From a virus (taxonomy: Duplodnaviria; Caudoviricetes), in the IMG/VR virus record IMGVR_UViG_3300012352_000629, positions 1 through 52,603 of that record: a DNA stretch of 52,603 bases, one strand, 5' to 3'. A model generated the notes under the pieces. It did not search any database. It saw nothing but the letters and a program-made list of their open reading frames with translations, and was not told the DNA's origin. This document shows, in pieces, positions 1 through 38,571 of the stretch (position 1 is its first letter; each line of letters begins with the position of its first letter). The position numbers were made by a program, and so were the translations under genes.

Positions 1-91
1 CACGAACTTCTACCAACTGCTTTACCTGCTCAAGAACAACCTTGGTTGCCTTGGTGGTCTTGGTGCTCTGGGTCTTTACTGCTACTGACAT
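1..91 (-). CDS. Hypothetical protein, N-terminal part (MSVAVKTQSTKTTKATKVVLEQVKQLVEVR...), runs off the window
   Basis: ATG at 91 with GAAAGGG RBS and upstream promoter; open to the window edge. Confidence 0.75.
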   Translation of the reverse strand, partial: MSVAVKTQSTKTTKATKVVLEQVKQLVEVR

Positions 92-135
92 TTTGTATCC
101 CTTTCATTTGATTCAACCTTTTGGCTGATGTAATC

Positions 136-164
136 AGCATAGCCTATGCCAAAACAAAAAGCAA
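136..164 (-). promoter_or_regulatory. sigma70-type promoter TTGCTT-17-TATGCT, with GACAC box at 179-183
   Basis: Read directly; same layout as other units. Confidence 0.75.
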
Positions 165-267
165 ATCTTTTTTCTGGCGTGTCGCCTCTGCTAGAAAAAA
201 TAACTACGGCTCCAACTTTTCACGAAAAAGAAAAACCCCGCCGAAGCGGGGTCTTGGTTGTCGAGGG

Positions 268-516
268 CTACTCGGCAGGTTGAAGCAGGAACTCCAGCAG
301 GTCTGGAAGATTCTCACCGTGGAACATCGGGTCGTAGGCGTAGACGCTCCAGCGGTCACCGCAACATCCTGGGCAACCATCTGAGAAGTCAATGCCATAG
401 TTCTTGGCAATGGTCTCCGCCTCGGCGCGAGTCTCGGCAACGATGGTCGCCATCTGAGGCATACCCTCTAGGAAGTAGCCTCCAGCGTTGTTCTGGTCTA
501 GAACGAACTTGGTCAT
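268..516 (-). CDS. Phage hypothetical protein (QNNxGG...CPxCGDRW type)
   Basis: ORF; start moved to ATG 516 behind GAAGGGGG RBS. Confidence 0.8.
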   Translation of the reverse strand: MTKFVLDQNNAGGYFLEGMPQMATIVAETRAEAETIAKNYGIDFSDGCPGCCGDRWSVYAYDPMFHGENLPDLLEFLLQPAE

Positions 517-562
517 TTTGTCCCCCTTCGGACTTAGGCTTTCACTCTGAAAGCCTAGTAAT

Positions 563-592
563 AACTTATCACTATTCCGTGTCATTTGTCAA
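563..592 (-). promoter_or_regulatory. sigma70-type promoter TTGACA-18-TAAGTT
   Basis: Read directly upstream of 268..516. Confidence 0.65.
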
Positions 593-697
593 GCCGTGAA
601 TCTTACGCACGGAAGCTCTAAGAAAAAATAACTACGAGCTCAGCCCAGACGGCAAAAAGAAAACCCCGCCACATTGGGCGGGGTCTCTCTGGCTTGA

Positions 698-1051
698 TTA
701 CTTGAGAGCAACCTGAAGGCATTTGTGAGGGCTGTTGTCGGCCCACTCGACCTTGATTCCATTGTCCTCGAACGCCTTGAGAACAATCTCTCCAGCCGAA
801 GTCAATCCCTCTGCTGTGGCTAGGTTGCTGTGGTTGAAATACATCGTGTCGAAGTCGGCGTAGTTTCCAACAATCGAAGTGCGATTACCCTGTCCACCAT
901 AGTGCCAAACAACTGGCACATTGTCGGCCAGCCCAAGGTCAATACAACTACGGCAACATCCCATTACATTCTTGCGAGCAACGATTCCAGCCTTGCGAAT
1001 AGCCTTCATCGCCTTGTCCATACGAACCTCTAGGGTCTCTGTCTGCTCCAT
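698..1051 (-). CDS. Hypothetical protein, DUF6891-like (GIVARxNxxCCxSC)
   Basis: ORF with GAAAGGGG RBS; motif recognition. Confidence 0.75.
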   Translation of the reverse strand: MEQTETLEVRMDKAMKAIRKAGIVARKNVMGCCRSCIDLGLADNVPVVWHYGGQGNRTSIVGNYADFDTMYFNHSNLATAEGLTSAGEIVLKAFEDNGIKVEWADNSPHKCLQVALK

Positions 1052-1235
1052 TTGTTTCCCCTTTCATTGCGCAACCATTTTTGGTTACACCAAAAGCCTA
1101 CCCTATCTACGACAAAAAGCAAATCGAATCTCCGTGTCGTGTCGCTGTCAGAAAAAATAACTATGCCCTCGCACCACAGACAAAAAAAGAACGCCTGCCT
1201 TTCGGCAGACGCTCTCTCTTTAGGGGGGACTAAAT

Positions 1236-1439
1236 CTATTCTTTTGCTAACGGGACTGTGTTGAGAATCTCTAACGCAGGAAGATACTCTGTCTCATAAT
1301 CTTCCTCACGCCATTCGTTCGTCTCTGAATCCCAAACTCGTTCATCTTTGCCGAACCTTGCTATGAATGTTTCATCATCTATGAACGGCACACCTGAATC
1401 TAAATCAACGGTGACAACGAAATGGACTTCTCTACTCAT
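1236..1439 (-). CDS. Hypothetical protein (MSREVHFVV...)
   Basis: TAATG-coupled to the upstream gene. Confidence 0.7.
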   Translation of the reverse strand: MSREVHFVVTVDLDSGVPFIDDETFIARFGKDERVWDSETNEWREEDYETEYLPALEILNTVPLAKE

Positions 1440-1591
1440 TACGAACCAAACATTCCCATCTCGTGTTGTAGCCAATCATCAAACTCATTCTGGCAATCGG
1501 CACATAGGGGGTGAACCTGTCCGACTTCCGCTTCAATCTTTGTTTCACATTGGTAGCAAGTTGTCTGCTCTTTGAGAATAATCTGAGCCAT
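1439..1591 (-). CDS. 50-aa Zn-finger-like protein (CYQC...CADC), not in the ORF track
   Basis: Translated by hand; TAATG coupling on both sides. Confidence 0.7.
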   Translation of the reverse strand: MAQIILKEQTTCYQCETKIEAEVGQVHPLCADCQNEFDDWLQHEMGMFGS

Positions 1592-1764
1592 TACGCACCA
1601 ACCTTTTCACGCTCGAAGAAATCTTCCAACGCTTCCATTGTTCCGCACGCTGAACAAATCTCTGTCGTGTTGTCTCGGCGTGAAATCGCACCGGGGTATG
1701 CCCCCGGGGTCTTGTTGTTCGGAATGTAGCCAGCGCACTTAGGGCAACGCTTCAACTCGTTCAT
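1591..1764 (-). CDS. Small Zn-ribbon protein (CPKC...AISRRDN..ICSACG)
   Basis: ATG 1764 overlaps the stop of the upstream gene. Confidence 0.75.
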   Translation of the reverse strand: MNELKRCPKCAGYIPNNKTPGAYPGAISRRDNTTEICSACGTMEALEDFFEREKVGA

Positions 1765-1976
1765 ACTGCCCACGCTCCGAAATCTAGGTCGCTTGCTTCT
1801 CGGCGTGAATCGCTCCACGCAGACTCGCCATAGAAATACTTCCTCTTGCCAGTAGCCACATCTGTCATACGCCAGTAGTCCTCTGGAAACTCGGCAGTCC
1901 CGACTGCCAGTTCAACTAGTTCGCTTGCGTAAACTGTGTCCCACTCTTTTACTGCTGAAACGCTTGGCTTTGCCAT
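1761..1976 (-). CDS. Hypothetical protein
   Basis: ORF with AAAGGGG RBS, first gene of its unit. Confidence 0.75.
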   Translation of the reverse strand: MAKPSVSAVKEWDTVYASELVELAVGTAEFPEDYWRMTDVATGKRKYFYGESAWSDSRREASDLDFGAWAV

Positions 1977-2267
1977 AATCGCTTCCCCTTTCTTGATAGT
2001 CCAAACTTACCACATACCTCAGGTATAAGCAACTACGCAACTTCCGTGAAAAGTTTCCCGCACGCAGCAGAAAAAATAACTATGCTTCGCAACGCAAGGG
2101 CAAAAGAAAAACCCTCGCAAGCGGGGGACACCTGCGAGGGTTTGACTTGGGGGTTATTCAGTTGTGTGTTTGTTGTTAGGGACAACTCTATTTGGCGTGT
2201 CTGCCACGCCCCTTTGCGTGACGACCCTTGGGCTGAACTAGCCCGAAAATTGTTAGCAACTTCCTCA

Positions 2268-2498
2268 TTACTTACCCTCTCCAGATACGAATGAAACGAA
2301 CTTGTTGAACTGCGGTGAGAATGTAAACATCACCGCAACGATAATGCCAATGCTAATCCCATTGAAAAAGGTTTCGCTAATGGTCTGGTTTGGCTCTCCA
2401 CCAATCAGTAGCAACATTAGGTAAAGGAATACCCAAGCACCTGCTACGAATGGAATTGCTAGAACTCCTGCTACTGCTCTGCGAATGTAAAACTTCAT
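2268..2498 (-). CDS. Small two-TM membrane protein
   Basis: Two hydrophobic segments; RBS. Confidence 0.75.
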   Translation of the reverse strand: MKFYIRRAVAGVLAIPFVAGAWVFLYLMLLLIGGEPNQTISETFFNGISIGIIVAVMFTFSPQFNKFVSFVSGEGK

Positions 2499-2541
2499 TT
2501 TGTTCTCCCTAACTTTCTATCAGGTTTTCCTGATACGAATA

Positions 2542-2570
2542 ACTATACCTAACACCACATCTAAAGTCAA
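2542..2570 (-). promoter_or_regulatory. sigma70-type promoter TTGACT-17-TATAGT, with GACAC box at 2582-2586
   Basis: Read directly. Confidence 0.75.
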
Positions 2571-2678
2571 ACATCTTTCTCGTGTCTGCGGAAGCGTTAG
2601 AAAAAATAACTATGCTTCAAGAATTTACGGAAAAGAAAACCCCGCCAGTTTTCTGACGGGGTCTGCGAAACTATGAAA

Positions 2679-3356
2679 CTACTTCTTAGCCTTGCTCACT
2701 CTCTTTGGCTTTGGCTTGGTTACGCTGTGAACATCTATGCCCCAGTTAGCAAGAATCGAGGCTGTGCTTTGCTTCAATTCCATTACCTGCGCTAGGTAGA
2801 CTTCTTGCTTGTTTCTATCTTTTAGGTCGGCAATCAAACTATCCAGCGACTTCTGCCACTCGACTACTCGCCTCTTGGTAAGTCTGTTAGTTCCGACTAT
2901 CGTGCGATTACCTTTAGCCCACGCTCTTGAGTATTGAATGTCGTGTGGCGCACCCAACTCTCCAGACGCAATAGCGTAAGTTCTAGAATCTGGTCGGCGC
3001 TTCAATAGAGTAGCAATCTCGGCTGACATTACTTCATCTCTAATCGGCAAACGAACCTCTTCGGCGTTTAGGTAGTAAGTAGTCCTGCTTGGTGCTTCTA
3101 GTTTGCGTTTGAGTTCTGCCCTCAATGCCTTGGTGTGAATTTGAACATACTCGGCTTCCCAGTCGGAAACTTCTTTTTTGGCTTTTGCTATTGCGTCTGC
3201 GAACGCCTGCTCTTGCGCTTCAATCAATGACTCACTGTCGGCGACTATCGCCTTTATACCCTCTAGGTATCCAATCACCACATACTTATTGACTGTGCCT
3301 AGCAACTTCTCACTTGGTGTAGTTCTGTAAGCCATCATTTTATTGTTTACTAGCAT
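2679..3356 (-). CDS. Hypothetical protein, helical with basic C-terminus
   Basis: 225-aa ORF, AAAGGGAGG RBS. Confidence 0.8.
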   Translation of the reverse strand: MLVNNKMMAYRTTPSEKLLGTVNKYVVIGYLEGIKAIVADSESLIEAQEQAFADAIAKAKKEVSDWEAEYVQIHTKALRAELKRKLEAPSRTTYYLNAEEVRLPIRDEVMSAEIATLLKRRPDSRTYAIASGELGAPHDIQYSRAWAKGNRTIVGTNRLTKRRVVEWQKSLDSLIADLKDRNKQEVYLAQVMELKQSTASILANWGIDVHSVTKPKPKRVSKAKK

Positions 3357-3536
3357 TTATGCCTCCCTTTGTTATGAGCAAGTTTACCAACCACCACTGA
3401 CATTCCCGTGAACTTTTTACGAGTGTCGTATCCTGGCAGAAAAAATAACTATGCTTCGAAAAAGAACGGCAAGGGAAAACCCCCACTAGGGAAATGTCAG
3501 TAAACCTAGTGGGGGTCAGGGGGGTGTTAGGGGGAA

Positions 3537-3872
3537 CTAACTCTTTCTATTTCTAAACTCTTGCCATTCGTCATAAATCTCACTCCGCATACTTCTACGG
3601 CGACTCTTTGGGTAGCGACTCTGCTCTGCCAAGAAAAGTATGTGTTCTGCTTCTACGGCACTAATGCCACCTAGGAAAAACACTCCAATCAGAATCAGTA
3701 GTTCTACTGTCGTGTCTACTCCAGCAACCATAAACATAACCACACAAAACGCTGAACCAAGTGTCACGCCACGAAACATAGTTGCTATGTGTTCGGCGTG
3801 ATTCATTCGATTCAAATAGACGGCACGCTTGTATTGCCCTCTGCGTTTGCGTTCGTGATAACTAAGTGCCAT
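3537..3872 (-). CDS. Membrane protein (2 TM)
   Basis: ORF coupled to the upstream gene. Confidence 0.75.
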   Translation of the reverse strand: MALSYHERKRRGQYKRAVYLNRMNHAEHIATMFRGVTLGSAFCVVMFMVAGVDTTVELLILIGVFFLGGISAVEAEHILFLAEQSRYPKSRRRSMRSEIYDEWQEFRNRKS

Positions 3873-4117
3873 TAGATACCAAACACCTCTCGCAACTTTT
3901 CATCTAGGCGAGCAAGATTACGCTCTGCTCTTGCTGACGAACCTACCAAATACATACCAGACAAAATCTTTATCTCGGCATTGGCATAGCACTCTGACGA
4001 GATAGAGGCTTTGGTGCTGTCACCATAAACGCTCTCGCCACCAGCCAACTTCATAGCACGCTCAAAGGCGAACTCTGCGTATAACTCTTTTGCTACCTTG
4101 TTGAGAATCTTTGACAT
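3872..4117 (-). CDS. Hypothetical protein
   Basis: ORF, GAAAGGGG RBS. Confidence 0.75.
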   Translation of the reverse strand: MSKILNKVAKELYAEFAFERAMKLAGGESVYGDSTKASISSECYANAEIKILSGMYLVGSSARAERNLARLDEKLREVFGI

Positions 4118-4281
4118 TTTTGTATTCCCCTTTCATCAACTACATTACCAACCCCCTCTGACATTTTCAACTTTTCATCAACGGCGTGTCGAAGCTCCAG
4201 AAAAAATAACTATGCTTCCAAATAAACTGGCAAAAGAAAAAGTGCCCGCCTTTCGGCAAGCACTCTTTCGGATAAACCTTT

Positions 4282-4749
4282 TTATGAAACTGAAACGCCA
4301 CCAGACTTTTCGAGAAAAACGGCAACTCGCTTAATCTCTGTAAGGTCTAGATAATCAGCAAGGTCGAACGTATTCCGAGTAACGCCTAACCCTTGGCATT
4401 TCGCGCAGAAACTTATGTACTGAGGCTTACCGAGACTGTCCAGTTCAGTAGTGCCTACACCATCGCAGTGTTCGCAAGTAATAATCGGCGACTTGATTGC
4501 CTCGTCGCGTGAGGCTTTCTTATACTCGGCTACTTGCTTGAGGGTGACTTTGTTTAGCAGTTCAGCAATAGTCTTAGTGTCCTCTGCCGACCACAAGGCT
4601 CTGTATGCGCTGAAAAATTGCTCAAGTTCTTCCGACTTTAGTGTAGTTTTGGCAAACTCTTTGAGAGCACTGAACCCAGCGATGCCTAGCACTATCTCCT
4701 TTTCACCATACTTAAGTCCCTTTGTCTTTGCCCTTAGACTTACGCCCAT
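4282..4749 (-). CDS. Hypothetical protein with DnaJ-type CxxCxGxG zinc finger; paralog of 13923..14441
   Basis: CEHCDGVG and CAKCQGLG; shared C-terminal FLxxSGG. Confidence 0.8.
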   Translation of the reverse strand: MGVSLRAKTKGLKYGEKEIVLGIAGFSALKEFAKTTLKSEELEQFFSAYRALWSAEDTKTIAELLNKVTLKQVAEYKKASRDEAIKSPIITCEHCDGVGTTELDSLGKPQYISFCAKCQGLGVTRNTFDLADYLDLTEIKRVAVFLEKSGGVSVS

Positions 4750-4918
4750 TTTGTTCCCCTTGTCCCTTTCCTATCAACTTTTGTTGATACCTAAATCCTA
4801 TCAGTCCTTGACAAATAAGCAAACACGCACGTAAACCCTCTAGAAAAAATAACTATCCACCCCCGAGCGCGGGCAAAAGAAAACCCCCCACTTTCGTGAG
4901 GGGCTAACTTTTTACGAA

Positions 4919-5272
4919 CTATCCTGTGAAGGCTTTTCGTGTCTCTTCGACAAGTTCCAACATCTCTGCCACATCTGCGTCGCTCAAGCCAATGGTGTAA
5001 CCCTCTGGGTCTGTGCCACCTGTGAGAACTACTGTCCCAAAGATTGGGCGATTGCCACCAATCTCTGAGTAGAGTGCTGAACCAATAATGTTTGCTTCCA
5101 ACTCTGGGCGGAAGATGAACTCCTCGTTCACCCACATAATCACATCTGACGCAACGACTACTGCTTCGATGTAACCATCAACGGCCTTCTGAAGTTTGCT
5201 CAATTCATCCTGAGCAATGTCAATGACACTTGCTTCCAATGCTGGTGTGATTACTACTGCTGACTTTGACAT
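4919..5272 (-). CDS. DUF3846-like protein
   Basis: LQxAVxGYIE...VNEE...N...I.G.VVLTG pattern. Confidence 0.75.
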   Translation of the reverse strand: MSKSAVVITPALEASVIDIAQDELSKLQKAVDGYIEAVVVASDVIMWVNEEFIFRPELEANIIGSALYSEIGGNRPIFGTVVLTGGTDPEGYTIGLSDADVAEMLELVEETRKAFTG

Positions 5273-5442
5273 CTCTGTCCCCTTTTCTGTCAGAATCTCT
5301 GACTAAGAAAATCCTAACACCTTCCACCGCATTACGCAAATCCTTCATAAAAAGTTTCCACCGGCAGCAGAAAAAATAACTACAACTTTTACGGCAAGCA
5401 AAAAAATACCCCGCCATTTCTGACGGGGCATTTCTTATTTGG

Positions 5443-5709
5443 TTATTGGTGACAACCGCACTCGCAGGTTACTGTTCCGCGTTTGGCTTCACGCAACTCT
5501 TTACGCTCGTTAGCAAGTTCTTTCAACTTAGTGTTGAACTTCTTGACTTCCCTAGCCCACTTCGACAACTCATCTAGGTTTATGCCTAGGTTGTCTTCAA
5601 CCCCAAGGTCATTCACAAAGTTCATAGCCAACTCTCGGCGTTGCTCTACAACTTCGTTTATTTCTTCTTGAACAATGGCAAGTCTTGCCTTTATCTCGTT
5701 GGTGTCCAT
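5443..5709 (-). CDS. Coiled-coil hypothetical protein
   Basis: ORF, AAAGGAG RBS. Confidence 0.75.
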   Translation of the reverse strand: MDTNEIKARLAIVQEEINEVVEQRRELAMNFVNDLGVEDNLGINLDELSKWAREVKKFNTKLKELANERKELREAKRGTVTCECGCHQ

Positions 5710-5832
5710 ACCAACTCCTTTCGTAGTATTACTACTTTACCGCACCTACTTAGAAAAGTCAAGTTGCTCTGTCGTGTTCGTATTGCTCGCAGAAAAAATA
5801 ACTACACTTCAAAACTTCACGGCAAAAGAAAA

Positions 5833-5934
5833 GCGGCAGTAGATTGGGGGGAATCTACTGCCGCGACTAGGTAAAGGGGGGGTAACCTAGTATCTTCAAC
5901 TGTTAGTGAGCAACTTTGCTGCTATCCAGTTGAA
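5833..5934 (-). ncRNA. 6C-like structured RNA: two adjacent hairpins with C7 and C6 loops plus an upstream hairpin
   Basis: On -: ACTAGGT-TACCCCCCCTTT-ACCTAGT then GCGGCAGTAGATT-CCCCCC-AATCTACTGCCGC followed by a U-tract. Confidence 0.55.
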
Positions 5935-5941
5935 ATCTATA

Positions 5942-6226
5942 CTACTCTACAAATTCTTCTTCCGCATCCACGCACCACGCGTCAAGGTGGTGATTAATAA
6001 TAATCTCACGCGCTGGCGCTGTCTTCTTACCGCGATAAGTTACTCCCTCGGGTAAGTCAATCTCTTTGTCCAACTCATCTGCCCAATAGCAATCAATTGC
6101 TTCGACACAAGGTGTAATCATTGATGACGGCACCGGCGGGAAGTGGTTGCCCCTTAGGTGCCAATCTAGTTGTTGCTCTAAGGTCAAATTAGTTTCCGCA
6201 ATTCCCATTGCTGTTACGTGTCCCAT
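5942..6226 (-). CDS. Phage hypothetical protein (HLxxNHxPP...HHL.AW)
   Basis: ORF coupled to the upstream gene. Confidence 0.8.
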   Translation of the reverse strand: MGHVTAMGIAETNLTLEQQLDWHLRGNHFPPVPSSMITPCVEAIDCYWADELDKEIDLPEGVTYRGKKTAPAREIIINHHLDAWCVDAEEEFVE

Positions 6227-6618
6227 TAGTCTTCCTCTCCAGTTCCATAATACTCATTAACTAAGTCTTCCTGAATGTTATCGGCGATGATGAATTCTTC
6301 GAATGTCCATTCGTGTGAACCGAATGTAACTCGCTGATTAGGGAAGTCAATCACCGCGTGAAAATAACTTTCCTCGAATAGGTTATCGCTATCATTGCCT
6401 ACGGCAATCCCGAATCCAGTTACGCTGTCCCATTCGTTGCCAATAATCTGGCTGATAAAAATACGCACGCCATAACTCGTATCGCTCCAGCGTGGCATTG
6501 CGCTAATAAGCGCTCGCTGTGTGTCGGCAAACTTATCTTCTCCGCCATTGTGGCTGTAAAGGTGAACGGCGTTCCCGCTGTTGTCCTCTTTGATAATCCA
6601 CGCTGTTCTCGAACCCAT
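6226..6618 (-). CDS. Phage hypothetical protein (MGSR...LYSHxGG)
   Basis: Start moved to ATG 6618 behind GAAAGGGG. Confidence 0.8.
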   Translation of the reverse strand: MGSRTAWIIKEDNSGNAVHLYSHNGGEDKFADTQRALISAMPRWSDTSYGVRIFISQIIGNEWDSVTGFGIAVGNDSDNLFEESYFHAVIDFPNQRVTFGSHEWTFEEFIIADNIQEDLVNEYYGTGEED

Positions 6619-6786
6619 TTCGAAACCCCTTTCTAGGTATGCCCTAATTCTATCAATCTGTCGTGAAAAGTCAACTTCATCTGGCAGCGGCGATTCGCTG
6701 AAAGTGTGAGAAAAAATAACTACACTCGGCGAGCGCAAAAGGGTAAAAGAAAACCCCGCCTAAGCGGGGCTAACTTTTTATGGTGT

Positions 6787-7122
6787 TTAGTAAGTTGGGG
6801 TGTATTGAATGTTGAGCATACGAACCAATCGCTTTTTGTTTGGCGATGGTGAGTAATACGCTAGAAACTTCTCTACCGCAGTTGCTGGTAGTGACCTTAG
6901 GATTCTGCCTAGTAGCGTGCTAGTGGTCTGGCTAATCTGCCAATCTGCTAGAGAAACAATCTCGTGAGTGTGAATGTTGTATTCGAGAATCGTAGTTCTC
7001 CAGTGGACAATCGTGTAGATTCCAGTGTCGCTCATCTCAGCTACAATCGTGCCATTGTAGTTTACGAATGGCTGAAACTTCTTGATGTAGCCATTGATTT
7101 CATAGTTAGCAATTCTTGCCAT
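6787..7122 (-). CDS. Hypothetical protein
   Basis: ORF, GAAAGGGG RBS. Confidence 0.75.
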   Translation of the reverse strand: MARIANYEINGYIKKFQPFVNYNGTIVAEMSDTGIYTIVHWRTTILEYNIHTHEIVSLADWQISQTTSTLLGRILRSLPATAVEKFLAYYSPSPNKKRLVRMLNIQYTPTY

Positions 7123-7292
7123 TTTAGTTCCCCTTTCGAACTTGCTATAAGTTTACCAATACCCTACGACATTTTTCGTGTTCGTGAAAAGTTTCGTGAA
7201 AAGTCTGTCACCTCCAGAAAAAATAACTATGACTTTGATTTACAGCAAAAAAGAAACCCCCGCATTTCTGCGGGGGCTTCTCGTGATTCTGC

Positions 7293-7610
7293 TTAGTCCA
7301 ACTTAGCCAGTTCGCTGGTGAGGCAAGCAAGCAAGGCTTCTGCTTCTGCCTTGGTAAATCTGTGGCTCAAGATGTCCACGTGAGTCGTGATTGGCTCGTC
7401 ACCATAACTGATTGAAACGTAGGTGTGACCAGTAATCGAAACCCAGACATTGTTGTCGTCTGCGTCTGCGCTGGTGTAGATGTCAATCGAGTTTGACACA
7501 TAGGTGTCGCTCTCGTCGTTGCTTCTAACAGAAACCTTGGCAGAGCTTTGCTCTCCAAGTTCAGTAGCGAGGTCTAGAACGACCTGCTCCTTTACAGCTG
7601 TGGTAGTCAT
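7293..7610 (-). CDS. Hypothetical protein
   Basis: ORF, GAGGGG RBS. Confidence 0.75.
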   Translation of the reverse strand: MTTTAVKEQVVLDLATELGEQSSAKVSVRSNDESDTYVSNSIDIYTSADADDNNVWVSITGHTYVSISYGDEPITTHVDILSHRFTKAEAEALLACLTSELAKLD

Positions 7611-7805
7611 AATGACTTTCCCCTCGTTTTGTATAAGCCTTGTTGCTTATGGAATAAGCGTATACCCTATGGCTGACATTTGTCAAATCTTTCTCGTGTG
7701 GCGTGTCGTGCCAGAAAAAATAACTACACTCGAAAAAATGACGGCATAAAAAATCCCCCAATCTGGCTCGCTGTCCAAGATTATTGGGGGAAAACTTTTT
7801 ATGGA

Positions 7806-8015
7806 TTACAAATAGCAATCTCCGCATTTAGGGATTCTGCCACCCAGGCTCTCAATCCAATCTTGAGTTCGCTGGTCTACTGTGTAATCATCTCCGCACT
7901 TGTAGCAAGTGTGCGTGTAGCGTGGCTCGTCTGGTGATAGTCGTCTGCCACTTCTCATAGCGAGGTTCGTAAGTTCCTCGTCTGTGAGTTCTGGATTCTC
8001 GGCGTGTAGTCGCAT
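7806..8015 (-). CDS. Small Zn-ribbon protein (CYKC...CGDC)
   Basis: ORF coupled to the upstream gene. Confidence 0.7.
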   Translation of the reverse strand: MRLHAENPELTDEELTNLAMRSGRRLSPDEPRYTHTCYKCGDDYTVDQRTQDWIESLGGRIPKCGDCYL

Positions 8016-8266
8016 TAGTCCCTCTCATCTCTCCATTGGTCGTAAGCGGCATCTTCATCATAGCCACCCTCGTCTGCTATCTCTTTGGTGAGGATAGCCT
8101 TACAATCTGGACACTCCGCACTTGCGTTGTGTCCCCAATCATCTGTCTGCCCATCTAGCACGAACTCGTCTTCGCAGTTGTCGCAGTAGAAGATACCTGA
8201 ATAATCCTCTTGGTAGATACCTGACCCCATCATAGAGCCACCATCTCCATAACTCCCTAATGACAT
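8015..8266 (-). CDS. Acidic Zn-ribbon protein (CDNC...CPDC)
   Basis: Start moved to ATG 8266 behind GAAAGGA. Confidence 0.75.
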   Translation of the reverse strand: MSLGSYGDGGSMMGSGIYQEDYSGIFYCDNCEDEFVLDGQTDDWGHNASAECPDCKAILTKEIADEGGYDEDAAYDQWRDERD

Positions 8267-8437
8267 TTCTTGTCCTTTCTGTCTTTCGACAATCTGATTA
8301 TTACATAGTGGTCGGACATTTAGCAACTTTTTATCAGCGTGTCAAAGTTCTAGAAATCTATCAGAAAAAATAACTATGGGGAAAATCAAGACAAAGAAAA
8401 ACCCCTAGCAGTTCGCTAGGGGTCAAATCTTTTTTGG

Positions 8438-8752
8438 CTATCGCAGGTCTGCGTATTGCTTCTGCCAATCGAAGTTTCTGACTGACTCTGCTTCCAAAAT
8501 GCTTTCAGCATTGTCGGGAACTTGAGCCATACGAAGTCCAGCCTGAATCACAAGTTCATACGAACCTACACCCAGTCCGTCTGCGATTGACTGGATAATC
8601 CCACTCGAAGGACACTTGTGTCCTCGCTCTACCTCTGATAGGTAACCCAGAGCAAGGTATCCGTTAGCACTTAGGTTGCGTAGCGTCAACCCTTTAGCAA
8701 GCCGTTGCTCTCGCACAACCTCGCCGAAAGCGGTCTGAAAATCTGTTCCCAC
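8438..8752 (-). CDS. XRE-family HTH regulator, ClgR/PopR-like
   Basis: R..RL..GLTLR.LS....LALGYLSEVERG.K.PSS..I..IA..LGV resembles the actinobacterial ClgR HTH. Confidence 0.8.
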   Translation of the reverse strand: MGTDFQTAFGEVVREQRLAKGLTLRNLSANGYLALGYLSEVERGHKCPSSGIIQSIADGLGVGSYELVIQAGLRMAQVPDNAESILEAESVRNFDWQKQYADLR

Positions 8753-8754
8753 TT

Positions 8755-9108
8755 CTACTCCTCGCCGTCCGTGTGGTCGTGGTCGCAGTTAGCGTGAGGG
8801 TCTGACCAGTTCTTGCCTTCTTCTTGCCAGCCGTTCTGCTCGATAATCCGCTCAACAACCTCGCCACATTCCATAGCGGTTAGTTTCAGATTGGTAATCA
8901 ACTCGTCCACGCCGTTCATAAGGTCGGTGTTGTCCGTGCCTTCGTATTCAAGCCGTGCCTTGAACTGCTCGGCAAGTTGCTCTGTTGCTTTCAACGCCCG
9001 ATACATAGTTGGGTCTGCGTATCCGTCTTTCACATACGACTCAATAAGCACGCCGACTACTGTGAGGGTAAGTCCCGTGATGTCCTCTAGTTCCAATGGC
9101 TGATTCAT
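8755..9108 (-). CDS. Hypothetical protein
   Basis: ORF, AAAGGGG RBS. Confidence 0.75.
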   Translation of the reverse strand: MNQPLELEDITGLTLTVVGVLIESYVKDGYADPTMYRALKATEQLAEQFKARLEYEGTDNTDLMNGVDELITNLKLTAMECGEVVERIIEQNGWQEEGKNWSDPHANCDHDHTDGEE

Positions 9109-9258
9109 TCAGCACCCCTTTCCTTTGGTATCAGATTACCACTAACTTCCGACAATTTCCACTCATTTCCTAATCGTGTCAAACCTGCCAGAAAAAATAA
9201 CTATTCGTGTTGATGAGAAAAAAGGGGCAGGGCTTTCGCCCCACCCCTCTCTCTCGTG

Positions 9259-9603
9259 CTACTTCGCCTGTCGTGTCACAGAACGAATAGGGTATTGCTT
9301 CTTGGTGACGAGGCACGCCTCGTAGACCTCTGGGAACTTGGTCTTTAGAAGTTCCATGTCCACAGACTCTTTCGACTGCTCTGCGATAACCGCAACCTCA
9401 ACGCCATTGTGGATTAGGGTCTGGGCTTTCTCGCCCACTACGGCAAAGATGTCTTTGCGTAGTTCGTCTACACGCTTGGTCGCCGAGTTCGCAATCGCAC
9501 GAACATCTTTCAGTTCGTCCAACATAGCCACGAACTTCTTTGTGACCTTGACGACCTCTGCTACTGGTGTTGCCTGTGTTGCTTGGGAAATGACCTTAGT
9601 CAT
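9259..9603 (-). CDS. Hypothetical protein (coiled coil, VD..LK..FPEVY motif)
   Basis: ORF, GAGGGGG RBS. Confidence 0.75.
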   Translation of the reverse strand: MTKVISQATQATPVAEVVKVTKKFVAMLDELKDVRAIANSATKRVDELRKDIFAVVGEKAQTLIHNGVEVAVIAEQSKESVDMELLKTKFPEVYEACLVTKKQYPIRSVTRQAK

Positions 9604-9962
9604 GACTTCCCCCCTCTTGGGCTACTTCTGTTTCACCCTGATTGGATACTCCAATCCTACCTCTTTTCAACCAAAAAGCAAATCAAAGTTTCCTGCGTGT
9701 CGCACCAGAAAAAATAACTATTGGGCTGGCAATCCGGGCTGGGGAGTGCCAACTTTTTACGAGCTAAAGAAAGTCAGAGCGGCAACTTTTATGATCACTA
9801 GAACTCCCAGAGCGATACCTCGGGAAAGGCGAAACCCCTACCAAGACTTGGGGGAAGCAACTTGATAGGGGTTTCTATTGACTATCCGTTGGGAACTAGT
9901 GTCAGGTGAAAGGGGGGAACTCCCGAGTTTCGCTCAACCTCTAGATAGGCAATCCGTTGTGC

Positions 9963-11828
9963 TTAGGTGAGTGAACCCACCTTTGCTAAGGCTTCGCTTG
10001 CCGACTTGCCGACTAGCAGGGCAATCTCGGCGGTGTCTAGGTTGTCCAAGTGAACTCCCCACGCCGATTCTCGGATAATGCTTCTAGCACCAATCGAGTA
10101 GCAATCTTTCGGTGTAATCCAGAGAACCGCCACGCCGTTCGCTTTACACTCTCGTAGAACCTTGACTGCCCATTCCGTCTGCTTCGGTGTGTAGTTGCCG
10201 TCTGAAACGATAACCAACATTCTCACGCCGTCACCGAAAGTCAATCCGAGTTCGCCGTCCAACGCCTCAAACGCCTCGCCAAACATTTCCGTTCCGTCTG
10301 GTGCGGTGTAAATCGTGACCTCGTTCAAACGCTGTCCACGCTTGAGAGTTGGAAAGATACCCGAGCCGTAGTAAATCATAGCCGTTTCAGCCTGAATCCT
10401 GCGACCTGCTTCGGAGAGAACCCACGCTGTCGTTCCCATAGCGTTCATAGCCGAACCCATAGAACCCGAGATGTCCACCATTACGCCAAGACGAAGTGTT
10501 GGGTCGTCTGTGTGCTTGCGTGTCTTTGACTTCCAAGTTGGGAGTTCGCCACGCATACCCATAGATTCGACTGCTCGATTCTGAATCAGATTCCTAGCAA
10601 TCAGTTTTCCCTGTGGCATTTGGGTCTTGCGAATGTGAACAGAGCGTTCACGATACTTCGCCTTTTCCAAAGACTTCGCAATCGAAACGGCACTTGCTCG
10701 CTCTGCCCCAGTTGGCTGTCTGCGAGTGTCCACTCGTGAACTTGAGCCACTTCCAGTTTCAGGGCTGTGGGTCTTGTCGAAAACCTGCTTCGCCTTTTGC
10801 TTGCGTTCGTTGCTCTTGTTCGCTTCGCTCTGGCGTGCCTTTGACTGCTCTTGAAACTGCTCGTGCTTCTCTTGGTCTGCGAGAGAATCGCTGGCGTTCA
10901 TCTCTGCTTCTGTGGCAGACTGCGAAAGTTTAGCAATCATCTTTTTCATAGTGTCAGACATTTCGCCCTCGCCAGATTCGCCCTCGCCCTCGCCCTCGCC
11001 AGATTCGCCCTCTGATTCCTCGAAAGGGTTGCCAACTGAACCTGCCTGTGGCTCGCCCTCTGGGTCTGCCTCACGCAAAAGTTCAACCCACTTCTTTGAG
11101 AGTTGAATCGCACGCTCGACCTGTGGCACGCCTAGCGACTGAAACTCAATCCAGACTTTGCGTAGTTCGTCAAACAAATCCTGACCAATAACTGAAACGA
11201 CTTCTCGATAGATGTCAGAGATGTCTGCCACCTCTAGCACGCCAGAATCTACTCGTGAGATTGCCAGACCTGCTAGTTGGGCTGTGTTCCAGATGTCACC
11301 TGCTAGGTTGCCAAGTGACTGCTCATTGACACCCTCAAGTGCCATTTCCAAAGCCGAAGTGCGTAGGAACAAACGATTCTCTGGTCGCTCTTTGATTCCC
11401 TTTGCTTCGATACGAGATTCCTCAAGCAACATAAATGCCTGTGCCTCAAGTGGCTCAAGTTGGGTGCTTAGGTATTTGGTATCCCACTTGGTATGACGAG
11501 CGTGTAGTGCTTCGTGGAATAGGATTCCAGTTGCCATTGGGAACTCATACTGAACTGCCTTGTCCATAATGTTTCCGACAAACTCTGCTGGCGTGAACTC
11601 TCCAAATGCTTTCGGCAAGTTCACCTCAATCTCGGCAATCTCTGAATAAAAAGCGGCGACTGCTCGACCCTCGGCAGAATCCTCACCTGCGTAAACTACT
11701 AGGTCGCTTCTCCAAGACCAGTCATTGACCAGTCGTCCAATCTGTGAACAAACTCGCAACCACTCTGGGTTGGTTGTCGCTGTTCGAGTTGTAAGTCTTG
11801 ACTTACCCTTTGCTTCGTAGTGTGCCAT
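9963..11828 (-). CDS. VWA (MIDAS) domain protein with N-terminal HExxH motif, CobT-like partner of the MoxR ATPase
   Basis: HEALH, EESRIE, acidic GE linker, VDISGSM MIDAS, IVSDG. Confidence 0.88.
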   Translation of the reverse strand: MAHYEAKGKSRLTTRTATTNPEWLRVCSQIGRLVNDWSWRSDLVVYAGEDSAEGRAVAAFYSEIAEIEVNLPKAFGEFTPAEFVGNIMDKAVQYEFPMATGILFHEALHARHTKWDTKYLSTQLEPLEAQAFMLLEESRIEAKGIKERPENRLFLRTSALEMALEGVNEQSLGNLAGDIWNTAQLAGLAISRVDSGVLEVADISDIYREVVSVIGQDLFDELRKVWIEFQSLGVPQVERAIQLSKKWVELLREADPEGEPQAGSVGNPFEESEGESGEGEGEGESGEGEMSDTMKKMIAKLSQSATEAEMNASDSLADQEKHEQFQEQSKARQSEANKSNERKQKAKQVFDKTHSPETGSGSSSRVDTRRQPTGAERASAVSIAKSLEKAKYRERSVHIRKTQMPQGKLIARNLIQNRAVESMGMRGELPTWKSKTRKHTDDPTLRLGVMVDISGSMGSAMNAMGTTAWVLSEAGRRIQAETAMIYYGSGIFPTLKRGQRLNEVTIYTAPDGTEMFGEAFEALDGELGLTFGDGVRMLVIVSDGNYTPKQTEWAVKVLRECKANGVAVLWITPKDCYSIGARSIIRESAWGVHLDNLDTAEIALLVGKSASEALAKVGSLT

Positions 11829-11946
11829 TTGCTTCCCTTTCATTTGGCTTATGTGTCTAGTTTACCCTTTTCGGGGAAAGTGTCAAGTCCATTTTGAAAA
11901 AACTTTTTCGACACTTCCCCCTCGGGTTATTTAGGGGACACGAACC

Positions 11947-13014
11947 CTAAATCTTTGCTGGCAGAATCGCCTCTCCGAATACTCGGGTGAATACATCACT
12001 AGCGATTGCTCTGTCAATCTCTGGTGCGGAAGCGAGCAAGTTTTGAACCGCCCACTTAGTTCCGAACAACTTGGTCAAATCTCTAAACGCTAGAAGTTCA
12101 CGCATTTGAGGCGACCACGAAGTTTCACCATTTTCCATTTTCTTTGCCAAGTTCTGTGAGGCGACAACCGCACTCTGCGGAACGCCCAACTTCTTTGCCA
12201 AGTTCCAGTCAGTTGTCAGTTCTGCCTGAATCGCAAAGCGAGATAGAAGTGCCTCGCTCAAACGAACACCTGCGACATTTGGGTTGGTCGCACTCACGAC
12301 ATAAAAGCCCTCTTGTGCTTTCACAACTCCACGCTCGGGATTCGCTGTGACGACCAGTTCTTTTCTTCCGTCCATTAGACCATAGACCACCGAAAGAACC
12401 TTTGGGTCAATCAGACCAATCTCGTCAATCAAAAGCACCTTGCCCTCGGAAGCCGCTTTTGTCAAAACTCCGTCCACCCACTCGAAACCGCCACTTGGGG
12501 TCTGGACATAGCCACCCACCAAGTCAGCAACCTCTGTGTCGCCAGAGCCAAGAATCGTGTAGAGTTCGTCTGGAAAAGCGGCTTCGACCATAGCAGTCTT
12601 ACCAGTTCCAGGGACTCCATAGAGCATTACATAGGCACTTGCTTCTCGTGCTTTGCGTAGCACTTCGACATCAGTATTTTCGCCCCACTTGCGACCAAAG
12701 TAAAGGTCGCCATTAGGTCGTGCGTATGATTCCGCACCCTCTAATGATTCTGCTGTTTCCATAACTTCCTCGAACTTGACTGGCTCGGCGATTGCCTCTG
12801 CTGAATCTAGTTTAGTCGGAGTTGAAACCTTAGTTCCAGACTTGGCTCGAAGTGTTGCTCGACCTGCTGGAGTTAGATGTTCGTCAAGAATCGAAGTCGT
12901 GATTCCGAAACTCGCACCTGATACCGCACCTGCTACCTGCTCGACCAACTTGTCGAAGTCAAGACCTGCGATAGTTGGGTCTGGGTGTTCTGCTACTACT
13001 TTGTTCTGATACAT
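11947..13014 (-). CDS. MoxR/CbbQ/CobS-type AAA+ ATPase
   Basis: Walker A GVPGTGKT, Walker B LLIDE, ATNP, ALLSRF. Confidence 0.92.
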   Translation of the reverse strand: MYQNKVVAEHPDPTIAGLDFDKLVEQVAGAVSGASFGITTSILDEHLTPAGRATLRAKSGTKVSTPTKLDSAEAIAEPVKFEEVMETAESLEGAESYARPNGDLYFGRKWGENTDVEVLRKAREASAYVMLYGVPGTGKTAMVEAAFPDELYTILGSGDTEVADLVGGYVQTPSGGFEWVDGVLTKAASEGKVLLIDEIGLIDPKVLSVVYGLMDGRKELVVTANPERGVVKAQEGFYVVSATNPNVAGVRLSEALLSRFAIQAELTTDWNLAKKLGVPQSAVVASQNLAKKMENGETSWSPQMRELLAFRDLTKLFGTKWAVQNLLASAPEIDRAIASDVFTRVFGEAILPAKI

Positions 13015-13058
13015 TTGGCTTCCGCCCTTTCGTGTCGTGTCTTTGTATCTGACTTGTA

Positions 13059-13673
13059 TTATGCCAGTTTTGTTGGGAACTTGTCAAGTGATTCACGAAC
13101 CTTGTTGATTCGGCGAATAACTGCTTGTGGAGTTTTGCGATTGAGGTGTAGGTCTGCGTAATCTTGGTCAGTCAGTTCGACTGCGATTGGCTTGCTATCA
13201 CGAACTACCCAACCCTGCTTTGCGATAGTCGAGCGATTGCCCTCTGAATCTGGCTCGCTGTAAGTTGTCGAGATAGTGTAGTTGCGTAGGAGATTTGCGA
13301 TTGCTCGCTTTCGAGAATCAAACTTCTCTCGCTCTGTGAGTTCGTCCCACTCGGCGTTGCTGTATGAGTTGTAGTTCACATACGAATCATTAGCAGAGTG
13401 AGCCTCTGCTGGCTTCAAACGGAATCTGTCTGTGTAGGTGAAATCCCATTGTGCCTTTGGCGAGAATGATGAAACTAGGCGTTCCATAACTACCGCACTC
13501 CACACTTTGCCTGTGTCGTCTTGATACTCTGGGAAAATAAGAATCTGCTTAGTTCCCTCGAACTGCCAACCCAACAAAGAGCGAAGTTCGTCCTTGTCCA
13601 TACTGCTGTCGCCAACCAACTCTAGGTAGAGTGCCTTGCCGACAATCTTTGGTGCTACTGCTGTGGTAGTCAT
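13059..13673 (-). CDS. Hypothetical protein upstream of the AAA/VWA pair
   Basis: 204-aa ORF, GAAAGGGG RBS. Confidence 0.8.
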   Translation of the reverse strand: MTTTAVAPKIVGKALYLELVGDSSMDKDELRSLLGWQFEGTKQILIFPEYQDDTGKVWSAVVMERLVSSFSPKAQWDFTYTDRFRLKPAEAHSANDSYVNYNSYSNAEWDELTEREKFDSRKRAIANLLRNYTISTTYSEPDSEGNRSTIAKQGWVVRDSKPIAVELTDQDYADLHLNRKTPQAVIRRINKVRESLDKFPTKLA

Positions 13674-13922
13674 TTGACTATCCCCTTTCGTGTCGTGTCG
13701 CTGGATTTTTCCAACAAGTAGATTGAAGCATACTTTTTACGGAATGTCAAATGTATCTCATAAAAAGTTTCATAACAAACTGATAACGGAACTTTTTTAG
13801 CAACCTGTAAGAAAAAATAACTACAAAGCAAAAATCTGCTAGAAAAAATAACTACAAATCTGGGCAAAGAAAAAGAGCCAGTTTAGACACTTGGCTCAGG
13901 TGTTTGACTTTACAGTCGGGGT

Positions 13923-14441
13923 CTAGCAGATTTCAAAACCACCAGAGTCTATTAGGAACTCTGCGAAGTCTTTGACATCATCTGGCTCTAGGTAATAGGA
14001 GGTGGCGAAGTTCTCACGCTTGCCAACTCCAGAGCAGGCATTACACGAACCCTTGGTGCGACCAACAATAATCGCAATGTCTGGCTCAAGTTCTTTTTCA
14101 GGCCACCCAGACTCTATGCCCAGTTGGTCTGTGCGAATACCTGTGCCTTCACAGATTTGGCAATCCTCGAATGGCAACTCAGACAGAGCCTTGTTTCGCT
14201 CGGCAACATACTCGACAACTTTTCCAGAGGTGTAGTCCTCCATCAAAAGTTTTGCCAACTTGGTGGCATTTCGTGAACCCAGTCCATCGCCATCGTTGGT
14301 GTGTGCGTGTTCAACCAACTCAGCAATCTCTGGGTGATTGTCCTCTACATAACCCCATAGTGGATGCCAGCCCCATACATTCCTACGGAAGTATTGACCA
14401 GCCTCTGACTTTGGGTTTTTCCCATAAACATCCATACCCAT
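13923..14441 (-). CDS. Phage protein (MGMDV...YFRRNVWGWHPLW) with DnaJ-type zinc finger
   Basis: CQICEGTG and CNACSGVG; RBS. Confidence 0.85.
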   Translation of the reverse strand: MGMDVYGKNPKSEAGQYFRRNVWGWHPLWGYVEDNHPEIAELVEHAHTNDGDGLGSRNATKLAKLLMEDYTSGKVVEYVAERNKALSELPFEDCQICEGTGIRTDQLGIESGWPEKELEPDIAIIVGRTKGSCNACSGVGKRENFATSYYLEPDDVKDFAEFLIDSGGFEIC

Positions 14442-14544
14442 TTAGGTATCCCCTTTCTTTGGTAGTTCAAGTAAACCATAAAAGGGTATAAGTGTCAAGT
14501 CAAATCAGACGCACTTATTTAGTGTCAGAAAAAATAACTATGAA

Positions 14545-14871
14545 TCAGAAAAAGTCGTATTCGTCATCATCAGCTTGGAAGTGACTTTTAACGACTGGAG
14601 GAAAGAAGGCGTCCACGTAGTCAAGCACTGGACTTGCGCACTCTTCACATACGACCCAGTCCTGGTCGTTCTCGTCAACTACTAGTACGAAGGGTTCGAA
14701 CTCGCATGTTGGGTTCGAGTAGCAAAGCTTCTCCTTGCACTCAGAGCAGTCCGTTACAGCTAGCTGCTCTGGCAGGATCAGACCAGAGGTGAGGGCGAGC
14801 TCTAGGTCTCGCTCGGTTTCAAAATAGTGGACTTCTAATGAACGCATGAGTATAGCATACAGCGAGCGCAT
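14545..14871 (-). CDS. Zn-binding hypothetical protein
   Basis: CSEC and CEEC; start may be 14847. Confidence 0.7.
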   Translation of the reverse strand: MRSLYAILMRSLEVHYFETERDLELALTSGLILPEQLAVTDCSECKEKLCYSNPTCEFEPFVLVVDENDQDWVVCEECASPVLDYVDAFFPPVVKSHFQADDDEYDFF

Positions 14872-14913
14872 GCCGTTGATTTGGAACGCGCTCGCCGTAG
14901 TGCTATAGCAGGC

Positions 14914-15387: not shown

Positions 15388-15389
15388 GG

Positions 15390-15545
15390 CTAGCCCTCAA
15401 TCTCTACTAGTTCAGTTAGCAAGTCATCTGCCTGCTCTTCAGTTATGTATTCGAACTCCTGTGCGTTATCTACAGCACAAGTCAGTCCATCATTGAAGCC
15501 CATCTGGTAGGCCTTCTTTAGTTCTGGGTTTCCATAGAAGTCCAT
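15390..15545 (-). CDS. 51-aa hypothetical protein, not in the ORF track
   Basis: Hand translation MDFYGNPELKKAYQMGFNDG...; fills the gap. Confidence 0.65.
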   Translation of the reverse strand: MDFYGNPELKKAYQMGFNDGLTCAVDNAQEFEYITEEQADDLLTELVEIEG

Positions 15546-15546
15546 G

Positions 15547-15726: not shown

Positions 15727-15749
15727 CTGAAGCCCCTTTCTTTGTGTGT

Positions 15750-20151: not shown

Positions 20152-20195
20152 TGTATTTCCTAACTTAGTTATTTGTTGTTTTTGATGTTAACACA

Positions 20196-38570: not shown

Positions 38571-38571
38571 G

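Follow-up and report, generated by a model that had tools for sequence, protein, structure and literature searches.

We analyzed the complete IMG/VR virus record IMGVR_UViG_3300012352_000629 (52,603 bases, estimated to be ~40% complete), hereafter the window, in which a 14-base sequence, AGAAAAAATAACTA, recurred 19 times between positions 193 and 14540, always on the + strand, at the junctions of an array of small gene cassettes. Our preferred reading, in which we have moderate confidence, is that this 14-mer is bound by a protein at the early cassette promoters, to which it is phased, that it is specific to each lineage and that it is, in addition, the main crossover point of cassette turnover. 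The repeat, its invariance, its lineage variants, its phased spacing to promoters and its place at indel junctions were established directly in the sequences compared. A preliminary description of the window had offered a shared crossover site or an operator as alternative explanations; the two roles are probably not alternatives, as both found support.

The preliminary description had reported 19 exact, co-oriented, intergenic copies and none after 14540, and this agreed with an exact scan, with 100 dinucleotide-preserving shuffles (mean of 0.00 and maximum of 0 exact copies by chance) and with a scan allowing two mismatches. The full record held 19 forward and 0 reverse copies of the 14-mer. 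Since the two-mismatch scan added only a single unrelated match on the opposite strand (20166-20179, two mismatches; 0.8 expected), there were no degenerate copies and none past 14540. Array open reading frames (ORFs) lay on the − strand, where the motif reads TAGTTATTTTTTCT, and all 19 copies were intergenic. At the usual junction, a spacer separated a G+C-rich hairpin and its T-tract from the motif, which was followed by −35/−10-like hexamers and a ribosome binding site, an order that had been described before and that recurred at most junctions; the motif stood directly behind a terminator at 15 of the 19, and four copies (9707, 13810, 13841 and 14527) had no terminator ahead of them. Terminator-like sites numbered 33, with 18.6 expected. 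A frequent GACAC box had also been described, and in the looser form [GA]ACAC it was found between motif and −35 at 9/19 sites. As stated earlier, the junctions differed in promoter and terminator sequence around an unchanging core: conservation was 100% across exactly 14 positions and 30-60% at the adjoining base on either side, with the exception that the next base after the motif was G in ~60-80%. The motif was non-palindromic, without dyad symmetry or inverted-repeat arms, and no Rfam family matched window positions 1-16000 at gathering thresholds. A FIS or IHF consensus (compared by eye) did not fit and was dropped, as was a T4-late-promoter-like reading of the reverse strand, which fits one variant only. 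A DnaA-box reading of the TATCCAC variant, found in other lineages, was dropped as well, the remaining variants being unlike the box.

Using the ATPase gene of the array as a handle, we retrieved 55 related viral loci, 15 of which carried arrays with a T-run motif, in at least eight lineage variants. The window's own TAGTTATTTTTTCT was that of L128; the others were TATTTATTTTTTGT (L131, L145), TATTTATTTTTTCT (L136, L140, L141), TATCCACTTTTTG.. (L126, L127), TATCCACTTTTTTA (L132-L134), TATGTATTTTTTCC (L135), TATTCATTTTTTAT (L175), TATTCATTTTTTCT (L130) and TTTTCACTTTTTC (L179). Further scans added genomes of the window type (L186, L187, L219-L222, L224), of the TATTTATTTTTTGT type (L189, L223, L225, L226, L229) and of the TATCCACTTTTTTA type (L227, L228), and a scan of IMG/VR with the bare 14-mer was uninformative, with a single match in each of the 80 stretches listed of at least 117. 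All variants kept a run of five or six T, and lineages differed from each other at G and C positions that were as invariant as the T run. Within genomes the motif scarcely changed (19/19 copies identical in the window, 24/24 in L181, 19/19 in L219, 14/14 in L183 and 16/16 in L136), the deviant copies being TGGTTATTTTTTCT (one each in L221 and L224), TAGTTATTTTTTGT (one in L229) and TATCTAC (3/18 in L184). Across four genomes of the window's type (type A), 72/72 sites were identical over 14 nt, with sharp edges, in shared DNA that was just ~70-75% identical.

In complete genomes of 152-154 kb, the motif spanned one array of 13-17 kb: copies were confined to 59302-72553 of 154,192 bases in G002 and to 108649-121687 of 152,411 in G003, both complete with terminal repeats. 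The ATPase tree, built without 12 of the 55 loci (duplicates, or sequences of insufficient length), placed L128 (window type) and L131 (GT type) as sisters, interspersed motif-bearing with motif-less arrays and needed 4-5 changes of motif label; L129 was scored as having none only since its locus stops right after the ATPase gene. Some relatives carried other repeats. L151 and L165 (at many places, for example L151 13602 and L165 13476), distant relatives without the T-run motif, had GGGT-N5-6-TTTTCCATG(y)A, and L174, likewise, had TTTTCCGTGTA; the GGGT-N5-6 repeat occurred in both orientations, often as facing pairs around short palindromes, and is possibly a different operator system. Close relatives without arrays (L138, at 9311, 11108, 13234, 13449, 15761 and 19975, and L142 as well) had a palindromic repeat between genes, CTGATCGATCAC, with six forward and three reverse matches at ≤1 mismatch, some of the copies lying upstream of promoters.

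The motif went with promoters and not with terminators. We refined a two-block promoter model at 187 motif sites of 13 genomes, using the 110 nt that follow each motif, and spacing was taken from the 144 sites that scored ≥8 (43/187 scored lower and were excluded). The distance from the last base of the motif to the first base of the −35 hexamer was 26-32 nt at 82/144 sites (mode 28, with 26 sites), with side peaks at 19-20 nt (n = 13), 36-40 nt (n = 22) and 48-50 nt (n = 7), and was near-empty between peaks. Vector strength was 0.48 at a period of 10-10.5 (Rayleigh p ~1e-15) and lower at 7, 8 and 12, and outside the main peak 49 of 62 sites fell within ±2 of the 10-bp phase. Hairpin-to-motif distance, by comparison, varied between 15 and 42 nt with no preferred value at the 128 hairpin-bearing sites. 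With the hexamer set at −35 to −30, the modal placement puts the motif at −77 to −64 of the predicted promoters, with its center at about −70.5 and side-peak centers near −62, −81 and −91. In bacterial promoters, RNA polymerase is contacted from these positions by class I activators and, at rrnB P1, from the FIS site. The statement in the preliminary description that the motif lies outside the promoter is thus misleading, as it is helically phased upstream of −35 and behaves like a far-upstream promoter element. Promoter-like sites beyond the array (19130, 16069, 15782) had no motif copy, and the motif therefore marks one class of promoter. The motif lay ~80-130 nt before the start codon, and a separate A-tract adjoined many −35 hexamers. 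Early promoters of the wider family also shared an extended core, TTGACAAATGTC(A/G), with an AATGTC box in the spacer right behind the −35, as at window 4170-4142 and 7686-7657 and, in the form CTTGACAAATGTCA (×10), in L150 and L151.

In the window, motif-to-−35 distances of the 13 best-scored promoters were 19, 23, 25, 26, 27, 28 (five times), 29, 34 and 36 nt, eight of them falling within 26-29 nt. All copies are given in coding orientation (− strand). The five at 28 nt were copies 1 (193..206; −35 TTGCTT, 164..159), 2 (621..634; TTGACA, 592..587), 5 (2599..2612; TTGACT, 2570..2565), 7 (4199..4212; 4170..4165) and 10 (5791..5804; TTGACT, 5762..5757). Spacing was 27 nt for copy 3 (1150..1163; −35 at 1122..1117), 29 nt for copy 9 (5369..5382; 5339..5334) and 26 nt for copy 13 (7713..7726; TTGACA, 7686..7681), and 19, 34 and 36 nt for copies 8 (4842..4855; 4822..4817), 11 (6709..6722; 6674..6669) and 4 (2069..2082; 2032..2027). 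Copy 16 (9707..9720; −35 at 9681..9676, 25 nt) headed the cassette of a gene family, F0, discussed below, and copy 19 (14527..14540; TTGACT, 14503..14498, 23 nt), the first in the direction of transcription, came right after a stop codon. Promoter calls were weak for copies 6 (3438..3451), 12 (7216..7229), 14 (8363..8376) and 15 (9190..9203). Copies 17 (13810..13823) and 18 (13841..13854) formed a tandem 31 bp apart, with TTGACA (13750..13745) 59 nt from copy 17, ahead of a conserved operon (9963..13014, − strand) that pairs a MoxR/CobS-like AAA ATPase (11947-13014) with a CobT-like protein (9963-11843; a sub-threshold VWA_CoxE Pfam match only). Such tandem copies, which occurred also in L128, 17 bp apart at another junction, are not covered by the explanation that we prefer.

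Comparison with close relatives linked the same element to the gain and loss of cassettes. In event A, the unit concerned was 643 bp long and bounded in the window by the motifs at 4842 and 4199 (cassette 4213..4841, − strand, with an ORF of 155 amino acids (aa) at 4282-4749); it was shared with a colinear 23.9-kb contig from metagenomic run X2 and had no counterpart in L187 (96-98% identical) or L186 (92-94%). Identity extended along the left flank as far as the motif and resumed with the motif on the right, and the surroundings of the two window copies had nothing in common but the motif; in run X4, depth was zero over 4273-4806 and the loose end continued below the copy at 4199. The ORFs at 13923-14441 and 4282-4749, the latter that of the event A cassette, are distantly paralogous, each with a weak match to a CXXC zinc motif; identity to the copies of relatives was 23-28%. 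In event B, two cassettes between window motifs 1150 (the left end) and 193 (207..1149, − strand; ORFs 268-585 and 698-1051, the second a DUF6891 protein) were missing from L186, with the junction within the motif. In event C, two copies of the motif enclosed a 528-bp cassette in L184, whereas L132 (97% identical) had a single copy at that place, the flanks being 100% identical up to the motif; the extra cassette carried its own motif, the TATCTAC variant, at its 5' end. The terminator of this cassette (L184 ~13440-13499) is a hairpin of three consensus DnaA-box-like 9-mers (TTATCCACA twice and TGTGGATAA once), and the lineage motif of L184, TATCCAC, resembles that 9-mer. Event D, a 504-bp cassette with an F0 gene in L183, again had its junction within the motif, which is single in L189. 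A cassette of L219 and L220 was missing from L224 (event F), and there the junction was the variant copy TGGTTATTTTTTCT, with ~12 diverged bases on either side.

Whole-cassette indels thus fell exactly in the motif in four of six cases (A-D) and at a variant copy in a fifth (F), which is the outcome that the preliminary description had proposed to look for among breakpoints of close relatives. The sixth ran through terminators: a contig of run X1 lacked window 246-677, a cassette-sized deletion with its junction in two terminator stems sharing 9 bases. Run joints whose shorter side was below 30 letters (2085->9822, 8159->14523 and others) were excluded, and an assembly artifact is, we infer, unlikely because a 14-bp repeat is shorter than assembler k-mers. 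Small-gene families common to the arrays of different genomes appeared in shuffled order; one homologous cassette, for instance, had different neighbors in the window and in L181, with similarity stopping near the motif on both sides. Replacement boundaries were less regular. One replacement between L219 and L222 started 16-17 nt past the motif and another ended exactly at it, a replacement near window position 9772 started in a terminator tail, some boundaries lay 16-20 nt off the motif and several small ORFs had been inserted inside cassettes. The crossover-site alternative of the preliminary description was therefore supported by junctions A-D and the shuffled order, while the terminator deletion in X1 and the off-motif boundaries speak against the motif as the only site.

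A localized replacement of the motif itself was seen between G006 (locus L130) and G007. Over most of its 55 kb, G006 was 70-90% identical to G004 or unalignable; a 6-kb stretch common to G006 and G007/G004 was 94% identical overall, with ~2.2 kb at 0-2 differences per 200 bases. Two orthologous junctions within this stretch carried TATTCATTTTTTCTTG in G006 and TATCCACTTTTTTACT in G007, and the replaced patches, of ~35 and ~55 nt, formed two sharp mismatch peaks; positions noted for the two motif variants and the patches of this genome were 9176, 13266 and 13775 of L130 (50496, 54586 and 55095 of G006). Only G006 itself had two matches to an 18-mer of its variant, the other 21 matching stretches having one each, and no other contig of this type was found. 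The motif is therefore exchangeable as a small patch, independent of its surroundings. This suggests that motif identity is actively maintained while the surrounding DNA is exchanged, which makes co-evolution of site and reader directly testable.

Invariance with sharp edges, indel junctions in the motif, patches centered on it and a cassette that brings its own variant (event C) could all be produced if the 14-mer were the core (att-like) site of a dedicated phage cassette-exchange system, a 'phage integron' with an enzyme or mediator of a kind not yet recognised, for which F0 would be the lead candidate. Lineage-specific variants would then be private exchange codes for cassettes that bring their own promoter and terminator. 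We consider such a system unlikely. Tyrosine recombinases (PF00589) were absent from all five records searched (G000-G004, two of them complete), in a search whose control matched 14/14 genomes, and YqaJ and RecT domains were found in none of five genomes. A resolvase/invertase-type serine recombinase of 231 aa (window 46978-47673) had homologues in G002 and G004; it was rejected as the partner of the motif, being missing from the complete, array-bearing G003 while a resolvase domain was present in the complete but array-less G012. The integron-like architecture of the preliminary description is thus unsupported as far as dedicated recombination is concerned, with no tyrosine recombinase and a resolvase uncoupled from arrays. 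The motif also lacks inverted-repeat arms for a recombinase dimer, its phasing to −35 would remain unexplained, and the terminator deletion and the off-motif boundaries also speak against such a system.

The F0 family, to which a window gene (9259..9603, − strand, 114 aa) belongs, is set apart by its distribution. With tblastn (E ≤1e-6), F0 homologues were present at 15/15 array loci and 1/40 others, spanning the 4-5 label changes of the ATPase tree, and the gene usually headed the first cassette past the CobT-like gene, often heading the final cassette as well. It resembled the C-terminal part of RecE/YqaJ-type phage exonucleases, matching that part of PHROG 434 ('RecE-like recombination exonuclease') at E 1.1e-6 and 3.9e-6 and, weakly (E 0.05-1), the C-termini of YqaJ/COG5377 endonucleases and small actinophage proteins in BFVD; in the ESM Atlas it matched viral hypothetical proteins only. 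Its predicted model (mean predicted local distance difference test score 78.8) has a 35-residue helix followed by a small mixed domain. Pfam had no match at the curated cut-off (best E 0.0091) and gave no recognizable catalytic domain, and the PDB yielded no sequence match better than E 0.013 and no fold match with E <1. The link of F0 to arrays is weakened by distant homologues in array-less G011 (profile search), and its link to the motif by subfamilies that do not sort by motif type and by G006 and G007, which have nearly identical F0 genes behind different motif variants. We therefore treat F0 as a lead for a motif-linked protein and not as a finding. With no dedicated recombinase found, no dyad symmetry and a deletion in terminator stems, short-homology recombination at the longest repeat is favored.

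Under the reading that we prefer, the 14-mer would be a cis-acting protein-binding element of one class of sigma-70/sigmaA-type early promoters, those of a hyperplastic array of small genes. It would sit on one face of the helix, with its center near −70 (else −62, −81 or −91), in a class-I-type geometry towards RNA polymerase, and a sequence-specific factor, most likely phage-encoded and differing in specificity between phage lineages, would read it and turn on the entire early class in concert, or turn it off at a later stage. No perfect repeat of the region is longer than the motif, each junction has it once and always in the same orientation, and it is the preferred point of short-homology recombination; cassettes (motif, promoter, gene or genes, terminator) are therefore deleted, inserted and reordered as intact expression units. 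For the operator that the preliminary description had suggested, phase-locking to −35 and the lineage variants are positive evidence; protein binding, an effect on transcription and the identity of a reader are what we infer from them. If a cognate factor exists, motif and factor would form naturally orthogonal pairs, each controlling a whole promoter class, which would be a useful toolkit and possibly a regulatory incompatibility barrier between co-infecting relatives.

Several observations weigh against this reading. Neither the HTH_3 protein nor F0 co-varied with motif type and no binding protein was identified; likewise, none of the protein families of the array and its upstream flank was more similar between genomes with the same motif than between genomes with different motifs. 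The rest of the genome had been suggested as a place to look for a recombinase or DNA-binding protein, and both turned up, the serine recombinase and an HTH_3 (XRE-type) protein of 104 aa in an array cassette (8438..8752, − strand; Pfam E 2.6e-7), but neither fits as the partner or reader of the motif: recognition helices of the HTH_3 protein were near-identical between L181 (type A) and L182 (type B) and differed between the window and L181 (both type A), and it was rejected as a reader. Zero changes in 72 type-A sites is stricter than most operator sets and suits an enzyme or a copy-paste process equally well. G006 held two variants, three sites of one kind and one of another, the fourth being of the TATCCAC type and 370 bases from the contig end. 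Inverted copies (L181 18210; L182 10569 and 15554; G010 19104) are not predicted by a simple oriented activator model; at the distal array end of G001, G002 and G010 one copy was inverted (elsewhere an inverted copy occurred once inside an array), and in L181/L182 (G001/G002) the inverted copy still preceded a promoter module of the same direction, with a GACACG box in G001. Transcription starts are predicted from hexamer matches, and a strict consensus scan found no enrichment of promoters (20, with 17.3 expected), as is understandable from −10 elements that follow a loose TAnnnT pattern. Finally, cassette promoters could share ancestry, making the modal spacing partly a matter of inheritance, though the side peaks at 10-bp steps argue otherwise.

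Alternatively, the motif might be a polar roadblock or insulator, bound by a protein that stops read-through polymerases or shuts off the early class. The motif is asymmetric, ~14 bp long, aligned with transcription, repeated many times in a genome and specific to lineages, much like the stoperators described for Cluster A mycobacteriophages (PMC6550527), the predicted host is an actinobacterium and the motif usually sits directly behind a terminator. However, sites were limited to one array and were not genome-wide, the DNA between terminator and promoter would be mostly untranscribed, and distance was loose to the terminator and phased to the −35. Furthermore, no integrase was found and no repressor homologue was recognized by Pfam among 20 array proteins, making a roadblock improbable in our view.

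A protein-independent role, in which the T-rich motif directly assists RNA polymerase from far upstream, in the manner of an UP element or of curved DNA, and frequent gene conversion keeps the copies identical, would agree with the T5-6 run found in all variants and with promoter phasing, as expected for curvature or for contacts of the C-terminal domain of the RNA polymerase alpha subunit. We find this still harder to believe, since G and C positions were equally invariant, and it is those that differ between lineages. Motif-less close relatives (L177, L138, L142-L144) had similar promoters, and a 14-nt patch with sharp edges is unlike homology-driven conversion. UP elements are A/T-rich and lie directly upstream of −35, at about −40 to −60; the motif, at about −77 to −64 at modal spacing, lies beyond them. 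Least probable of all is a target for a sequence-specific nickase or endonuclease (a T5-like interruption, or marker exclusion between phages) whose breaks cause the conversions and losses: copies on one strand, enzyme-like invariance, indel junctions at the site and short patches of variable length centered on it in otherwise ~99% identical DNA would suit such an enzyme, but no nuclease was linked to arrays, and promoter phasing and the restriction to intergenic DNA would have no explanation.

Among 50,697 phage records, none matched window positions 1-15000 by megablast, and a search for distant similarity over the same region found only the CobS-like gene of phage DSL-LC01, a metagenome-assembled genome. 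By protein, the nearest records were actinophages, with DSL-LC01, from a lake, first (39.5% identity), followed by Microbacterium and Gordonia phages. The gene order of DSL-LC01 (L231, record positions 30262-44020) was like that of the window, a long run of small genes coming after the ATPase and the CobT-like gene; its array repeat was a 15-mer, TCTAAAGATGTTATA, in 12 copies, not the T-run motif, and whiB lay inside the array. Two WhiB-like proteins were also encoded by each of G002, G003 (both complete) and G004 (75% complete), and as a control the WhiB family matched Corynebacterium only, among 14 control genomes. The host is therefore very probably an actinobacterium, judging from gene content. 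Freshwater actinophages encoding whiB are known from metagenomics (PMC10914622), and the runs holding the sequence were mostly freshwater metagenomes, with no RNA data set among the 22 runs listed. The carrier of the array is best explained as an uncultured virulent-type phage of freshwater Actinobacteria with a genome of ~130-155 kb. Elsewhere in the window were seven tRNA genes on the − strand (37397-38647; Arg, Asp, Leu, Met, Gln, Thr, Glu) and two separate endolysin/peptidase-like genes on opposite strands (16951-17823 and 27163-27996). It also encoded a thymidylate-synthase homologue (34606-35310), a Nol-like carbamoyltransferase (40810-42246) and a 2-oxoglutarate (2OG)-Fe(II) oxygenase (48707-49381); that these three jointly modify DNA bases, and thereby affect the T-rich motif, is speculation.

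A description of this motif was not found in the literature searched. Among known elements, class I activator sites are similar in having centers one helical turn apart upstream of −35, the CRP-type positions lying near −61.5, −71.5, −82.5 and −92.5 and the FIS site of rrnB P1 at −71, but they are degenerate, mostly palindromic and bound by host regulators, whereas the motif is asymmetric, invariant and specific to phage lineages. Start-associated sequences of Cluster K mycobacteriophages lie immediately upstream of translation starts, and the motif lies upstream of the promoter. With integron attC/attI sites the array shares short cassettes in one direction, a recurring site and gain and loss at that site. 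However, attC sites are imperfect inverted repeats of 57-141 bp that fold, and integron cassettes lack promoters and are expressed from a common Pc, while here there was no IntI (PF00589 being absent from 5/5 records), no folded attC but a non-palindromic block of 14 nt, and cassettes had their own predicted −35/−10 and, mostly, a terminator. We know of no role as cassette junctions for the intergenic repeats of halovirus HF2. Those repeats are likewise tied to promoters in a virus genome, but at 29 and 58 bp they are themselves reported to be archaeal promoters (PMC8707807).

The two closest parallels are in other phages. According to Mavrich & Hatfull 2019 (PMC6550527), stoperators of Cluster A mycobacteriophages are asymmetric sites of 13-14 bp, numbering 20-30 per genome and oriented with transcription, with a consensus that varies between related lineages, in phages of Actinobacteria. 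Unlike the motif, they are described there as genome-wide, mostly independent of promoters and bound by the immunity repressor of a temperate phage to block elongation; our sites occupied a single early array (13-17 kb of 152-154 kb) and were phase-locked upstream of promoters, with no repressor or integrase found. In T4-type phages, Promoter-early Stem-Loops (PeSLs) are intergenic modules of a terminator and an early promoter, concentrated where small ORFans form a hyperplastic region; the modules border indels that distinguish close relatives, genes travel with their own promoter and terminator, and recombination between repeated regulatory sequences is the proposed mechanism (Arbiol et al. 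2010, PMC2839356; Comeau et al. 2014, PMC4122927). Excised mini-circles with a single chimeric element are a further mark of such cassettes; the public runs compared here supplied contigs. The window array likewise had a composite of sigma-70-like promoter and terminator, and its indels were bounded by such elements with the one exception in a terminator stem. The conserved part of a PeSL is a promoter consensus with an AT-rich upstream region and a stem-loop, ~100 bp in all, with the stem-loop often within the promoter. Here, in actinophages with a different host, no such ~100-bp consensus was present and the only invariant part was a discrete, sharp-edged 14-mer that lies ~28 nt upstream of −35 and varies between lineages. 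The motif is thus PeSL-like in what it does for genome plasticity and stoperator-like in form, while it fails the defining features of both, and of integrons. Together, these arrays show at base-pair resolution how a large phage with abundant freshwater Actinobacteria as hosts turns over accessory early genes as ready-made expression units, the boundary of the unit being neither the promoter nor the terminator itself but a discrete, lineage-private 14-mer.

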